Source: Candidatus Moanibacter sp.
GTDB taxonomy: Bacteria > Verrucomicrobiota > Verrucomicrobiia > Opitutales > UBA2987
Direction of reading: 5' to 3'
Length of the DNA: 64,000 bases
Assembly: GCA_965215885.1 (NCBI GenBank)
Contig: CBDCEW010000098.1
Coordinates: forward strand, 32,001-96,000
The notes under the pieces are model-generated. The model saw only the letters and a list, made by a program, of their open reading frames with translations, ran no database searches and had not been told where the DNA came from. This document shows, piece by piece, positions 6,324-63,190 of this stretch (positions are counted from its first letter, which is position 1; each line of letters opens with the position of its first letter). A program made the position numbers and the translations under genes.

Positions 6324-6568
6324 AACTAGGACATAAGTTTCACGCACATTAGTTGCTTCATGCCCTTGCATAATCTGTGAACAGTCGTTTCCCATTTCTC
6401 TGTTATACAAACTTGAAATGCTTGTTTCCTTCTGTTCAGTTCTCTTTCCGATTCGTTGCCCCTCATTCATTCGTTGCTTAATCATTCTCCCGCTCAGCGG
6501 GATTACGGCTTTGCAGCGCTGCGCTCTATGCGTTCTTCTGTGGCAATTTCTGTTTTCCTATTTCTGTC

Positions 6569-23263: not shown

Positions 23264-23507
23264 GGAAAATGCGAAACGGAGTACCAACAAAGCCGATTTG
23301 ATGCTTCCCCAAAACGTCTACAATCTGTTCCCGCCGAGCGGGACGAGGAAGAATGACGAAGCAATCCACGCTTTCGACACTCCAAGAATCCCGATTGCCA
23401 CTTCCACCGCATCGAGTTCACAGGGATAAGGGAGTAGTGACGCAGAGGTACTCATGATGGATGCGTTGGAGGGAAAGTCCGATATATTGACGGTTTGATG
23501 CTCGAGT

Positions 23508-25069: not shown

Positions 25070-26586
25070 ATGAAGACCGAATACGACGTGATCATAATGG
25101 GCGGCGGTGGGAGCGGTCTGGCCGCCGCGGTAAGCGCAGCTGAAGAGGGGCTGAGTGTGCTTCTCCTGGAGAAGCTTTCGGTCCTCGGTGGCACTACGGG
25201 AATTGCTGTAGGATCCTTTACAGCCAGCCGGACATCCCTGCAGCGCCGGCAAAAGATCGAGGACAGTCCGGCCGAGCACATCGAGGATGCCGGAAAGTTC
25301 GCTGATTGGGAAACCGAAGGAAAAAATAATGCGCCGCTGCGAAGCTACTTTCTCTCTCAGGCCGCGGATACTTATGAATGGCTCGTTGGGATGGGTTTGT
25401 CGTTTCACGGTCCAAGTCCCGAACCTCCGAATCGTGTGCCCCGTATGCATAACGTCGTACCGAATGCCAAGGCCTACATCGCTATCCTGCAGAGGAGATT
25501 TCTCGCACTGAACGGAACCATTTACTGCAATGCCAACGTAAAGAGCCTCCATCGGGAGCGCGAAAGGGTAGTTGAACTGGAGGTCGAGATGGCGAGCGAG
25601 ACAGTCCGATTCAGGGCTAAACGCGGCATCGTTCTGGCGGCGGGAGATTATGCCAATTCAAAGTCTCTCATCGCCAGTCACAAGGGGGAAGAATTCGCCG
25701 ACATTGAAGGTATCAATCCCCACTCCAGGGGCGACGGTCACCGCTTAGTGGATGCCGTCGGCGGCCGGTTGATCAACATGGAAGTAACCTGGGGACCGGA
25801 GATACGTTTTGTGCCTCCGGAAAAAAACCTTTTGTACAGCTTCTTCCCACCCACGGTCTCGCCGCGAGAATGACCGGGCTGCTTCTTCCCCTGGTTCCCA
25901 AGCTGCTCATCGATTATATCATAAAGCGATTACTCGTAACATGGCAGCACCCCGAAGAATCGCTATTTAAAGATGGGGCGATTCTGATAAATGCGGAAGG
26001 CAACAGATTCTGCAATGAGCGGGAGTTTCCTAAACGCGAAATTACTCTCGCCAGGCAACCCGGCAGGATCGCCTATATTCTCCTGGATAAGCGATTGATC
26101 GAGCGTTACTCCGAATGGCCTCACTATATTTCCACTGCTCCCGAAATCGCGTATGCCTACGTGGATGATTATCTTCGCTTGAGAAGAGACGTGACCCACT
26201 CAGGGGACAGTCTCGCTGAAATCGCTCGTCTCAGAAAGATGCCGGTTGAAAACCTGATCGCAACCGTCGATGCCTTCAATGATGCTGTTGGGAATGAAAC
26301 GCCCGATCGATTCGAACGTTCAGGCGATGAATATCCGCTCGAAGGCGACAGATGGGTATTATTGGGGCCTGCCAAGGCCTATTTCACTATCACTGAAGGC
26401 GGTGCAAGTATTAATGAAAATATGCAGGTTCTTGACAATTCCGGGAGTCCTATCGGAGGGCTTTATGCAGTCGGCTGTAATGGATTGGGAGGACAGATCC
26501 TCTTTGGTCACGGTTTGCACATCGCGTGGGCAATGACGAGCGGGCGCCTGGTGGGAAAAGTTCTTGCCGATGAGGAAGACGGGTAG
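25070..26586 (+). pseudogene. FAD-binding oxidoreductase (FrdA/flavocytochrome c/KstD-like), split by a -1 frameshift at 25821-25827
   Basis: N-terminal GGGGSGLAAA and GGTTG; C-terminal INAEGNRFCNE, TITEGG, GLYAVG and GHGLHIAWAMTSG. One extra A in the A7 run fuses 25070..25873 and 25870..26586 via PEKKPFVQLLPTHGLAARMTG. Confidence 0.8.
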
Positions 26587-26895
26587 CCCCCATATTGCAG
26601 GAGGTCTCTCGTCTTCCATCCCCCACGCTTGCTGTTGGGTCAGTTGAGGATTCGGGCTACACCAAATGACATTGAACTTCAACGAATCCCCCGGGCTCGC
26701 CCCGGGGATCGTTAGGTTTCCAAGCCACTGCAGAGCAGCCAGGCACATTTTATTTACTGTAAGATGATTAGAAAATGAGAGCGATGACTAAACCCATTGA
26801 AACAGGGAGCGAAGGAGCGGGATCGGTTGACTGTCGAGTCCTGATGAGAAGTTGACACAAACTAATGGGATTCGGGTGTCGGAATTCAGGTTTCA

Positions 26896-27140
26896 ACATC
26901 GTCGTAAGCCTCGTCGTCAGCTTTGTCGAGATCAATCTAACCGATCTCCTGACCCTTGGTCGTAGGCTTGGTCGGGGAAGGATCGACTGAAAAGTACGAC
27001 GAAGTTGACGACGAAGGTTTCCTTGCGGGTGGAGGAAGCGCTCCCAAACTTAACCGTAAGCTTCGGCGTAAGCTTAGTCGAGCGAATGACCGGAAAGTAC
27101 GACGAAGTTTACGACAAAGCTCGCGACAAAGTTTAGAACA
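26896..27140. repeat. 12-bp periodic CGACRAAG-N4 mosaic repeat, including one unit of the 116-bp family
   Basis: CGACGAAGTTGA-CGACGAAG... and the CTTAGTCGAGCGAATGACCGGAAAGTACGACGAAGTT block, also present at 28035-28071. Confidence 0.75.
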
Positions 27141-27724
27141 TCGAAGACCGAAGGTTCCCCTATTTCGATGTTGAATGTTCGACGTTCGCAATCGTAATTT
27201 CACACTGACATCGTCCAGCTATGGCATCTCTGTGTGTCTCCCTACTACAATCAGACAATTTCTTGTTTTCTAAGCAAGGTTTGGAGAAGAAGAGACTGAT
27301 ATTCAATGTATTGTGATCGACAAGGTTCGGGACGAGGTTACTACGTAAATCGGAGCCACCTTCTCAATTCGATCAAATAGGTCTTCAATGTAATCGGATT
27401 CGGCACGCTAACCGCAGGCTCGCTCGGAATTCAGCGGAGCAAACCTCGTCCCGAACCTTGTCCGTTTGGTTACGGCTTCGCTGCGCTAAGCATGATTGTG
27501 GTTCCCATCGAGCGTCATAGCCGCCAACCGCGCTCGGGTATCTGGTGGGACGTCTTCGGCGCCGAGGTGACGCACAACGACACGACCAGGAAGCTGGTGG
27601 ATGAGCACGAGGAAGGGCGGCAGGGACAACGTCTGTATTGGTAACCTGAAGGCACGACCGAGCAAGAGTGACATTTCATCGACCTACAGTGTTTGCTCGC
27701 TGTTCCTCCAGTCCGATGTCAGGT

Positions 27725-28154
27725 CACGACAAAGCTCGCGACGAAGCTTACGACAATGGTTCCCTTACGGGTGGAGGAAGCTCTCTCCAATCTTTGTCGC
27801 GAGCCTCGTCGTAAGCCTAATCGAATGAGCGACCGAATTCCACGACAAAGCTCGCGACGAAGCTTACGACAATGGTTCCCTTCCGGGTGGAGGAAGTTCC
27901 CTCCAAACTTTGTCGCGAGCCTCGTCGGAAGCCTAATCGAAAGAGCGACCGAATTTCACGACAAAGCTCGCGACGAAGCTGACGACAAAGGGCCCATACG
28001 GGTAGAAAAAGTTCCCACCAAACTTAATCGTAAGCTTAGTCGAGCGAATGACCGGAAAGTACGACGAAGTTGACGACAAAGCTCGCGACAAAGTTTACGA
28101 CGAAGGTTCCCTGACGGGTGGAGAAACTCCCACCAAACTTAATCGTAAGCTTCG
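27725..28154. repeat. Tandem array of about 3.7 x 116-bp BIME-like units
   Basis: Units start with CACGACAAAGCTCGCGACGAAG at 27725, 27841 and 27957, plus a variant near 28072. Each has direct 12-mers followed by inverted 12-mers. Confidence 0.9.
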
Positions 28155-28166
28155 TCCCGCTCAGCG

Positions 28167-29772
28167 CATACGCGTAAACCTTATTTTCGCAACTTAGTCA
28201 GATTCAAAAACTTGCGAGGTATTTTGCGGCGGAGTATGAGGGTGTCTCTATCCTCGAGGTTCCACTCCATTTGTTCGCCCTTTTCTATTTGCTTCGTTTC
28301 GACCACAGCGGTGAGGAAATTCGCAGTTGAGCGAGTGCATTTTGGCCGGGTTATCTTCTCTACTTTTACCGTCTACCCCATTTTTTTTCACTTTGGCAGC
28401 ATTTTATACTGTACATTCGTTCATATATAGGATTTATCCTTCGGATGCAAAGTATAAAAAAAGCTGATTGTATCCGTCAAACCTTCCGTAAGTTGAACCT
28501 CACAGCCCTCGCTAAACAGAGTGGTTTTAGAGAGAGGAAATCGCGCAAGATCTCCCCTCTGAACTTTGTTTTGGCTTTGCTGGCGATGGCTTCTAAGGGG
28601 GCCTTGTCCCTTGGCAAAGAAGCCGAGCTTATTGGATTCTTAGCCAACCGCACCATTTCCAGACAAGCGGTCCAAAAGTGCGCCAAAAAAGCCACCGCTT
28701 TTATGACCTTAGTGCTCCTGAGGCTTTTAGAACTTAAAGCTTATGGGCCTGTGGGCAGAGCTGTTCCAAATTGCATGAGGAGCTTTGAACGGGTTCTCAT
28801 TGCCGACAGCACTTCGATTGGCTTGCCTAAGGTCCTGGCCCCCTTCTTCCCCGGAGCGTCCAATCAGACAGGCTCCAAACAGGCTCAACTGAAGATTCAG
28901 GCCTATTACGATCTGCGCAATGAATCCTTCGTTGACTTCAGCCTCAGTAGCTTCCGAAAAAACGATCAGGCTGCTTCCAAAGACATTCTCGCTCTCGCTC
29001 AACCCAACGACTTGATCCTGCGCGACTTAGGCTATTTTGTCCTCGATGTCTTTAAGCAACTCGATCAGCGCGGCTGCTTCTTTGTGAGTCGTTTGAAAAC
29101 CGGCACTTGCCTTTTAGCCAACGAAGGCGATGAAGAGCTCGATCTACGCAAACTTTTACGTGGCCAAAAGCTTCTCGATATGCCCGTTCGGGTGGGTAAA
29201 AAAGCCAAGCTTCCGGTTCGTCTGATCGCCGTCAAACTCCCTCAGAAGGTGGCCCATAAACGCCGCCGCGAGCATAGACAAAACCGCGACAATAGACTTC
29301 GATATACCAGCCGCACCAGCTTCCTTCTCGGTTTCCAAATCTTTATTACAAACCTCCATCAGAAAGACTTTAGCCCTAAGCAGATTCTGAGCTTTTACGG
29401 GCTTCGCTGGCGCATCGAAATTTTCTTTAAGGCCTTTAAGCAACATCTTAATCTCGGTCAGGTCAAAGAGACTACTCCCTACCAGGTTGAGCTTCTTATC
29501 TACGCCCGTCTCATCCTCATTACCCACTTACTCAACTTCGTCTATGGTCCCCTTAGACACTATTCGAATACCAGTTTGTCCTCTCCTCTGAGTATCCTTA
29601 AATTCTCCTACTGGTTTGGCTTCTTTGCTCCCTACTTCTTCATCCTCTCTCACATTCCCAAAGATCAGATCATCCCCCGATGGCTCAAACAAATCCCCAA
29701 ACACTGCACCTATGAAAAGCGTTCTCGACTTGATTTCCTCTCTTGTTTCTTCTCCTTAGGTTAACGCAAATG
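28167..29772 (+). mobile_element. IS4-family insertion sequence (1606 bp) with a 9-bp TSD CGCTCAGCG
   Basis: Imperfect TIRs CATACGCGTAAACCTTA / CATTTGCGTTAACCTAA; TSD at 28158-28166 and 29773-29781. Confidence 0.9.
28445..29764 (+). CDS. IS4-family DDE transposase
   Basis: IADSTSI (D), LRDLGYF (D) and YGLRWRIEIFFKAFK (YREK motif). The stop codon lies in the right TIR. Confidence 0.95.
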   Translation: MQSIKKADCIRQTFRKLNLTALAKQSGFRERKSRKISPLNFVLALLAMASKGALSLGKEAELIGFLANRTISRQAVQKCAKKATAFMTLVLLRLLELKAYGPVGRAVPNCMRSFERVLIADSTSIGLPKVLAPFFPGASNQTGSKQAQLKIQAYYDLRNESFVDFSLSSFRKNDQAASKDILALAQPNDLILRDLGYFVLDVFKQLDQRGCFFVSRLKTGTCLLANEGDEELDLRKLLRGQKLLDMPVRVGKKAKLPVRLIAVKLPQKVAHKRRREHRQNRDNRLRYTSRTSFLLGFQIFITNLHQKDFSPKQILSFYGLRWRIEIFFKAFKQHLNLGQVKETTPYQVELLIYARLILITHLLNFVYGPLRHYSNTSLSSPLSILKFSYWFGFFAPYFFILSHIPKDQIIPRWLKQIPKHCTYEKRSRLDFLSCFFSLG

Positions 29773-29844
29773 CGCTCAGCGGGATTGCGGCCGAAGGCTA
29801 CCTTAGGTTCATGGCGAAGAAATGGTTGAGAATTTGGCGAGAGG

Positions 29845-30810: not shown

Positions 30811-31668
30811 TCCAAATTCTCGATTAGATCAGGACCACAGAGAGTTGAGCAGAAGGAAACAAAGGAGAAACGGAGAGAAAGATGAAAGAATTCTCATCCC
30901 GGCGAGCCGGGACAAAGACGCAAAGGGGGAAGAGGAAGAGTATGCCCACGGATGGCTCCGCAGTACCACGGATGGGGAATCAGTTGAACTTGGGTTGAAA
31001 GCCGACTTTTCTCCCTTCGCGAATTGCGACAAGGTTCGGGACAAGGCTTGCGACGAGGTTTGCTCGATTGAATGCCGAGCAGGCCTGCGGTGATCCCGCT
31101 GAGCGGGACGAACCCGCCTCGGCTAAATCACTCGACTCCTTCGACGTATGCTCAGGAAAAGCCCCTCGACATAAGCTTGGGAAAGGTTAGCTCGTCGAAG
31201 TACTTCCGAATCCGTCACCTGTGAGGAAATTCCTGATCAGACTGCGAAGTTTATAATTCTTCTGAATGCCCGGTATGACTTAGGCTCAGTTTCACCCGGT
31301 CAATCCGACAGAGACTGACCTTGTGACTGACGGGGCTAATTCCACTCCTATTGAGCCTACCTGCGAAAATTACATCACGGCGTAGTGCCGCCCTATGGCG
31401 GGGCGAAGACGGACCAACTTCCGGGATAGTTTCCTGAGCAAAAGCGGACCTGTCACGACGTTCCTCCCGACGAACCAGTGAAGCCGGAATGTGACTCTCA
31501 ATTCCTGTTTTACGAGCCATCTACCATGCCCTTTCATTTTTCTCTGTCTTCGAGGTAATCAAACAATTCGCAATCTGGCCCTTTCTGCGGCCCTTCTGCG
31601 GCCGGAATCGAATGTTAGAGATCCGTCTTACCACGCGCTTTAAAAGGGACTTTTGTGCGGTCCGGTTT

Positions 31669-37079: not shown

Positions 37080-37167
37080 GAACAAATGGTTGAGTCTTAA
37101 CTAAATCGGGGCCATCCCGCTGAGCGGGATCACAGAGCCGTCTCCGCTGCGCCGTGCCAAGGGAAGC

Positions 37168-44927: not shown

Positions 44928-45116
44928 CTAGCCCGAACTTTTCACAAACCTTCTACTACGACCGCGTATGTCACTACGTCTCAAAGCCTTCCCTTGCCCG
45001 GCGACCTCAGAGGGTCCGAACACGCTGTCACCCGCCGGCCTGCAGAGAGGCTTTGATACGCAGTCCCGGCGCGCCGGGACAGTCTCGCAAAGAAGTGTGT
45101 GAAATGTCCGGGCTAG
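44928..45116. mobile_element. CTAG-flanked MITE, copy 2
   Basis: CTAGCCCGAACTTTTCACA...TGTGAAATGTCCGGGCTAG; internal homology to 37168-37349. Confidence 0.85.
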
Positions 45117-61922: not shown

Positions 61923-62030
61923 TGAGTTAATAGCAGCCTGTTGGACATTATGTTTCTTTCGGAAAAGTTACTCAGTTTCATTCCGATCCCGCTGAGCGGG
62001 ACTAACAATAAGAAAATGAATCTGTCGGTC

Positions 62031-63024: not shown

Positions 63025-63190
63025 TTAGTCGTTCCGCACCACTGAGTATATGACATAATTGCGGAAAAAAATTACCCTCACGAAGTTGGCGGTCACTTTC
63101 TTGCGAAAACGCCTACAGATATCAACGACTTACGGTACACTATAGCCGACCCGCTCAGCGGGAAAAGCACGTGGGAATTTCTCCGCGGAA

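Follow-up and report, generated by a model that had tools for sequence, protein, structure and literature searches.

Palindrome targeting has been described before in some IS4 relatives. In the extracts of PMC1525189 and PMC2266710 that bear on it, ISRm22 of Sinorhizobium meliloti (IS4 family, subgroup IS4Sa) inserts at the symmetry axis of REP palindromes, and in those of PMC5009759, IS186 of E. coli, also of the IS4 family, has the target GGGG(N6/7)CCCC. The insertion sequence (IS) described here resembles ISRm22 (PMC1525189, PMC2266710, same extracts) in that all copies lie in palindromic repeats, insertion occurs at the axis, and some of the direct repeats are unequal. Unlike ISRm22, which makes a 6-bp duplication in a long REP target, it duplicates 9 bp of an untagged 15-bp target, has CAT ends and carries an accessory gene. 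With IS186 it shares palindromic G+C arms, apparently read by the transposase, around a duplicated core (extracts of PMC5009759). The motifs of IS186 are scattered, about half of them in genes; the present target, by contrast, is an extragenic sequence that recurs as a repeat, and some of its stem belongs to the duplicated core. IS10, going by extracts of PMC4574204, likewise has a 9-bp duplication and the core NGCTNAGCN, but has CT ends and a loose target preference, whereas the present element requires the outer arms. Finally, the target itself recalls the GTAG/CGTC REPs, which are small extragenic palindromes of high copy number that serve as IS targets (PMC3733652, in extract). Those REPs measure 20–40 bp; unlike them, the 15-mer is shorter, has no terminal tag and no tie to Y1 transposases, and replaces target bases. 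The CGTC REPs, too, are without a known transposase in the extracts of PMC3733652. An earlier note on this DNA, made from the sequence alone, had cited IS3 and IS110 elements as precedents for REP targeting. Precedents do exist, but that list is incomplete, and the IS4-family elements ISRm22 (at the REP axis) and IS186 belong on it.

The insertion lies in the window (the whole stretch of DNA analysed here, 64,000 nucleotides), part of a 6.36-Mb genome in 105 contigs with 53% G+C (G000). Among the near-full-length copies in this genome (Table), 29 are 98–100% identical and two more are eroded; there are fragments besides. In three public sequencing runs, the best-matching of which may be the source sample, read depth is 80–178 over the IS and 2–9 over its flanks, so the IS is multicopy outside the assembly as well. 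The two eroded copies (C88:47775-49234 and C105:379907-381487) show many short deletions and few point changes, which may reflect either a mutational process or consensus errors at low coverage.

The transposase is encoded by a single open frame without frameshift, as in the IS4 family, and scores 198.7 bits against NF033592 (cut-off 115). Its DDE triad has spacers of 72 and 130, within the IS4 rule D(60-110)D(100-150)E, and is conserved in at least 99% of 105 aligned homologues; the IS4 motif Y(2)R(3)E(6)K is present. The IS begins with CAT and ends with ATG, and its terminal inverted repeats (TIRs) are imperfect, with 12 of the first 15 bases matching. CAT ends, YREK and size are shared with the IS231 and ISH8 subgroups as outlined in extracts of PMC2266710. 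The IS231 end signature, CAT(7)AA(2)TAA, is exact at the right end and has one mismatch at the left, and extra DNA separates the left TIR from the transposase gene, again as in IS231 (PMC2266710, in extract). The ISH8 features of CAT(11)T ends and a size of 1.4–1.8 kb are both found. IS231, however, is nearly confined to the Bacillus cereus group and has 10–12 bp repeats (PMC2266710, in extract), whereas the repeats here are 9 bp and the host is Gram-negative (LpxK present, 53% G+C). ISH8 is reported in the same extracts as lacking target specificity (PMC2266710), and its subgroup has 10-bp repeats; here the repeats are 9 bp and the target is strict. By its sequence features, then, the element is an IS4-family IS of the CAT-ended IS231/ISH8 branch, and because the IS231 and ISH8 subgroups each fail on one feature, placement stops at that branch. 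The length of the duplication, 9 bp here and 10 bp in relatives, is about one helix turn, as in the IS4 family. A search by sequence found no solved structure matching the transposase, and a single-protein scan of the genome_contigs collection gave one distant match only. An RNA-guided element of the IS110/IS1111 type was ruled out: the enzyme is DDE and not DEDD, and the leader is coding and has no Rfam match.

Table. Features of the window, in window coordinates.
Feature	Position	Strand	Remarks
IS4-family insertion sequence	28167..29772	+	1606 bp; 31 near-full-length copies in genome
Left terminal inverted repeat (CAT end)	28167..28184	+	
Right terminal inverted repeat	29755..29772	-	matches IS231 end signature
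DDE transposase, 439 aa	28445..29764	+	D121-D194-E325; Y318-R321-E325-K332; PF01609, NF033592
Candidate AbrB/MazE-like gene, divergent, 66 codons	28181..28381	-	stop in left TIR; broken: stop (TAG) at codon 3, loss of conserved residues
Sigma70-like promoter match, weak (10/12)	28451..28480	-	faces small gene, overlaps transposase start; two relatives have a comparable match
Target palindrome, left half	28155..28166		TCC + 9-bp target duplication 28158-28166
Target palindrome, right half	29773..29784		9-bp duplication 29773-29781 + GGA
Empty 15-bp palindrome	6488..6502		
Empty 15-bp palindrome	31094..31108		
Empty 15-bp palindrome	37115..37129		
Empty 15-bp palindrome	61987..62001		
Empty palindrome, one stem mismatch	63149..63163		
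Empty palindrome, loop variant CGA (one mismatch)	23329..23343		overlooked in the earlier note
Sister 16-bp palindrome	30897..30912		class unused by IS
Sister 16-bp palindrome	45064..45079		
Tandem repeats of ~116 bp	27725..28154		left flank of insertion

Every intact IS end in the genome abuts a TCCCGC-NNN-GCGGGA half-site (33/33 left and 34/34 right, 67 in total), with no more than one mismatch in any arm segment. Three damaged ends were excluded from the 67, among them that of a 96-bp fragment (C104:330992), which lies outside any palindrome. The earlier note had proposed palindrome targeting from the single insertion, and the flanks of the other genomic copies are likewise half-sites and not unrelated duplications. 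Counted genome-wide, the 15-mer occurs empty in 104 exact copies, and in 139 if any 3-nt loop is allowed, compared with 0.096 expected under a fifth-order Markov model. Only 6 of these 139 fall within ORFs of at least 250 aa, which make up 63% of the genome; one of the six lies inside a copy of the IS, and the remaining five apparently fall in spurious or upstream parts of frames. This distribution strongly supports the extragenic, safe-harbour placement that had been suggested. Miniature elements (MITEs) of 161–573 bp with the ends of the IS occupy the same palindrome at four two-ended sites (C80:24863-25435, C85:38294-38866, C100:196009-196421 and C103:189470-189630), and the interior of three of them contains palindromic repeats that also occur at other places in the genome. 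A second element, initially suggested by 20 apparent half-sites, was dropped, as these matches are internal to another repeat. Rare loops have been duplicated faithfully at four sites (C97, C10, C14 and C74), which proves that the 9-bp target-site duplications (TSDs) are genuine. Together, the data strongly support the conclusion that the IS inserts only into the centre of the 15-bp palindrome, and that it does so by sequence targeting.

Could insertion instead be broad, or loosely IS10-like, with selection retaining only those copies that land in palindromes? The 9-bp core does fit the IS10 consensus. However, 179 of the 325 CGCTNAGCG cores in the genome lack arms, and none of those 179 is used by the IS, so targeting goes beyond that consensus. 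Likewise, only arm-flanked sites are used among 1473 GCTNAGC sites, and the interiors of long ORFs leave roughly one quarter to one third of the genome free, with many neutral sites in it. We consider selection acting on untargeted insertion extremely unlikely.

Within the window, the 9-mer CGCTCAGCG is identical on both sides of the IS, and removal of the IS with one copy of it restores the palindrome TCCCGCTCAGCGGGA. The five empty palindromes listed in the earlier note are all present, four exact and the fifth with one mismatch, and all five lie outside ORFs of at least 90 aa, in line with the intergenic position given in that note. Allowing up to two mismatches, the window contains 9 matches to the palindrome, compared with 0.33 expected; none of 100 shuffles reached 9. 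One finding complicates the reconstruction of the target. The left flank of this copy comes from one repeat family and the right flank from another, so the restored site probably combines parts of two palindrome copies and is not the original target, and the copy itself looks like a product of flank exchange. The intergenic DNA to the left of the IS (26586-28154) is packed with short degenerate repeats and ~116-bp tandem repeat families. Further upstream, an FAD-binding oxidoreductase (PF00890) is apparently split into two overlapping ORFs (25070-25873 and 25870-26586), either a real split or a frameshift error.

Targeting of palindromes extends beyond this genome. A 67% homologue in genome G006 has a 10-bp TSD within a 16-mer, in the identical TCC^...^GGA register, and a 70% homologue in G451 has a third type of palindrome at its left end, its right flank being degraded. 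A much more distant homologue (31%, in G013) lies inside yet another G+C palindrome. Among close homologues, the palindrome differs but the register does not. When metagenomes were scanned with the TIR of the clade, at least 129 stretches matched, with 126 loci giving 125 distinct ends among the matches listed. Of these listed ends, 76 close a 9- or 10-mer with a 3-bp stem exactly at the junction and 49 fail to do so (shuffles: 6.4 ± 2.5, maximum 17, n = 1000; offset positions 1–16). Many of the metagenomic matches are MITEs or unverified, and a transposase match is found at only 14 of the 41 ends with long inward sequence. A laxer TIR pattern, run over 401 genomes of the phylum, performed near control level and provides leads only. 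A second genome with many full-length copies, sought among the same 401 for the TSD-asymmetry test described below, was not found. We conclude that palindrome targeting is clade-wide.

The explanation that we hold to be highly probable is that a CAT-ended IS4 element reads the arms of a host palindrome, that the palindrome has a separate origin, and that an AbrB/MazE-like gene is an optional part of the element. By analogy with the IS4 family, the autonomous IS would move by cut-and-paste, and a dimer of its transposase would recognise a short palindrome of the host by its symmetric G+C arms. Joining of the ends at staggered positions, each three bases inside the palindrome edge (TCC^...^GGA), would then duplicate the inner 9 bp, or 10 bp in relatives with 16-bp palindromes. 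Since the palindromes are nearly confined to repeat tracts outside genes, the element could multiply at little cost to its host. The palindrome cassettes would be written into many unrelated repeats by a process of their own, with the loss of about 5–7 bp, and both the IS and the MITEs would use them as landing pads. The divergent small gene in the leader would probably encode a regulator, and it is broken in the expanded lineage.

Recognition by the transposase might instead depend on the palindrome being extruded as a hairpin or cruciform, or on a host protein that binds it, and not on the arm sequence of the duplex. The 15-mer can fold as a 6-bp hairpin (-5.9 kcal/mol), the stems differ by host yet stay complementary, and the length of the TSD tracks that of the palindrome, as such recognition would predict. 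On the other hand, equally good hairpins are ignored: a sister 16-bp palindrome, commoner than the 15-mer, has 283 copies, none of them used by the IS, and a third class has 81, also passed over. The site on C97 is used despite its broken stem, and a symmetric dimer would yield a palindromic consensus without a hairpin, as in IS186. Hairpin reading is therefore unlikely in our estimation. Symmetric reading of the duplex arms by a dimer, which is also what was concluded for IS186 (extracts of PMC5009759), is the most economical mechanism.

A clean TSD model does not predict one feature of the data. Among 30 assessable copies, only 12 have identical left and right 9-mers, and 18 are unequal. The left loops mirror the spectrum of empty sites, and the right loops are skewed: TGA is found in 9/33 left and 1/34 right loops (p=0.006), and GCA in 7/34 right loops and 0/139 empty sites. 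In 5 of 6 full copies, the right loop GCA follows one internal haplotype. Movement of the IS as a whole unit together with both half-palindromes was ruled out, because left loops vary within one haplotype. Flanks are continuous at 10 of the 18 unequal sites, compared with 162 of 812 swapped pairs (20%), so flank exchange explains only part of the inequality and was rejected as its sole cause. One proposal is that the right-hand loop of the donor is carried into the new site, or exchanged by conversion. The asymmetry between left and right loops, the association of GCA with one haplotype and the flank continuity at 10 sites all favour it, and MITEs of low copy number in G000, G006, G495 and metagenomes are also unequal, often in the loop. 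Of 36 metagenomic two-ended elements, in which some pairings may be false or chimeric, 5 have perfect repeats and 7 have one mismatch. At the C30 site, on the other hand, contigs from run X2 confirm the left loop, and the right contig has the start and the two differences that an identical loop predicts, which, judged from starts and counts at this one site, points to an artefact of the assembly consensus. In run X3, a GCA junction exists at another locus. Recombination and adjacent deletion account for unequal TSDs elsewhere, and are compatible with the 8 of 18 sites where the flanks are not continuous. On balance, a combination of consensus artefact and recombination is the likely cause of the unequal TSDs; carry-over or conversion is a rather doubtful alternative, and carry-over of the donor loop taken alone slightly more so.

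The leader before the transposase gene is 278 bp long, as the earlier note had remarked, and it shows no sign of structured RNA: the predicted fold is weaker than that of shuffles (z=+1.24) and there is no Rfam match. A structured or guide RNA in the leader is accordingly not supported, the leader being coding. It contains the small divergent gene, for which related elements yielded 17 intact homologues. The small protein matches PF04014 at E 3-5e-5, just under the cut-off, has an Atlas score of 0.94, and resembles the profile of C56 of pSSVi (E 3.7e-5). A fold search gave no match at E<=0.001, with C56 and MazE in the top rows. These results, each below or near threshold, are consistent with an AbrB/MazE-like DNA-binding protein. 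The stop at codon 3 is found in at least 29 copies of the main lineage, so an element's own copy of the gene is not needed for expansion. A diverged but intact small gene on C61 could act in trans. In the three relatives with an intact gene, the element is found once per genome, which would fit a putative repressor whose loss may have released a burst of the IS. The AbrB/MazE-like family also occurs upstream of another gene in this genome, which is multicopy, transposase-like and ~400 aa long (C73:18401, C49:27464, C90:3803, C102:121620, C86:21297 and C94:15255), presumably IS701-like.

Where do the palindromes come from? By loose alignment, a sibling repeat lacking an intact palindrome exists for 90 of the 139 empty sites, though some siblings contain degraded or sister palindromes. 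Under a strict test, which required an exact 11+11-base sibling, 28 of 139 could be assessed, and in 21 of these 28 the palindrome replaces 5 or 7 bases. The sister 16-mer replaces mostly 7, 9 or 12 bases (63/283 testable). Both sister classes of mini-palindrome (16 bp; 283 and 81 copies) replace 7–12 bases at similar repeat positions. Genome-wide, empty palindromes show no flanking duplications above control and no doubled-core footprints. At C105:317575, a 15-mer interrupts the transposase gene in an older copy of the IS, where it has replaced 7 bases and shifted the frame; this fixes the direction of the change and shows that the palindrome was active after the IS arrived.

Across the order, the 15-mer is patchy: it is present in 33 of 401 genomes, with at least 9 copies in five. 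In G028, with 17 copies, the palindrome again lies within other repeat families; G495 has 10 copies and G508 has 9. No transposase match was obtained with this query in G028, G495, G508 or G542, although absence from a metagenome-assembled genome does not prove true absence, and MITEs of this IS family in G495 indicate that a transposase once acted there. Like the GTAG/CGTC REPs, the 15-mer is extragenic and of high copy number. It was nevertheless ruled out as a RAYT-mobilised REP: its 15 bp have no GTAG/CGTC terminal tag, the flanking positions are variable in 99 oriented copies, and an empty 15-mer lies near only 1 of the 28 Y1 matches listed (29 in the genome), about background. G000 and G006 do contain many 320–440-aa paralogues with partial Y1 transposase (PF01797) matches, which are candidate mobilisers though not palindrome-flanked. 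Two other multicopy repeats contain partial matches to the palindromes, one with 22 copies (e.g. C4:5887) and one with about 16 (e.g. C9:7875).

The earlier note had also raised the possibility that the palindromes are spread by activity of the IS, for example as excision footprints or minimal MITEs. Close transposases are found in both of the genomes with the most 15-mers (G000 with 104, G006 with 65), as this would predict. But empty palindromes lose target bases and lack flanking duplications, no doubled cores are seen, the palindrome sequence is absent from the IS ends, copies occur where no transposase is detectable, and the sister palindromes, unused by the IS, have spread likewise. Production or dispersal by the transposase is thus highly improbable. 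Given the replacement pattern, the genomes without a transposase match, and the lack of a tag or Y1 link, the IS most likely exploits the palindrome cassette and does not create it. The palindromes appear to behave as untagged mini-cassettes that spread apart from the IS.

In the literature searched, with most subscription journals and ISfinder outside its scope, we found no description of replacement-type palindromes, of this IS4 clade or of its small gene, and searches by sequence motif returned unrelated papers only. Since palindrome targeting was already known in IS4 relatives, novelty lies more with the palindrome cassette. As a tentative synthesis, which we put at somewhat less than even, the 15–16-bp palindromes may be minimal mobile cassettes, without tag, ends or linked transposase, written by a putative enzyme that removes 5–12 bases and active on the time scale of the IS. 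The IS4 clade and its MITEs would have specialised on them, shifting target with each host; loss of the AbrB-like gene may have released the burst to 31 copies, with carry-over of donor loops possible.

Together with relatives at 67–70% identity that use other palindromes, this DDE transposase, whose 15-bp target is apparently strict, forms a small natural series for the study of target recognition in the IS4 family, and the IS is a possible tool for site-specific integration. The larger question concerns the means by which such short palindromes spread in the absence of a transposase of their own, and has already been raised for the CGTC REPs. Because the states before and after can be read here, with 5–7 bases replaced, that question becomes testable in this genome.
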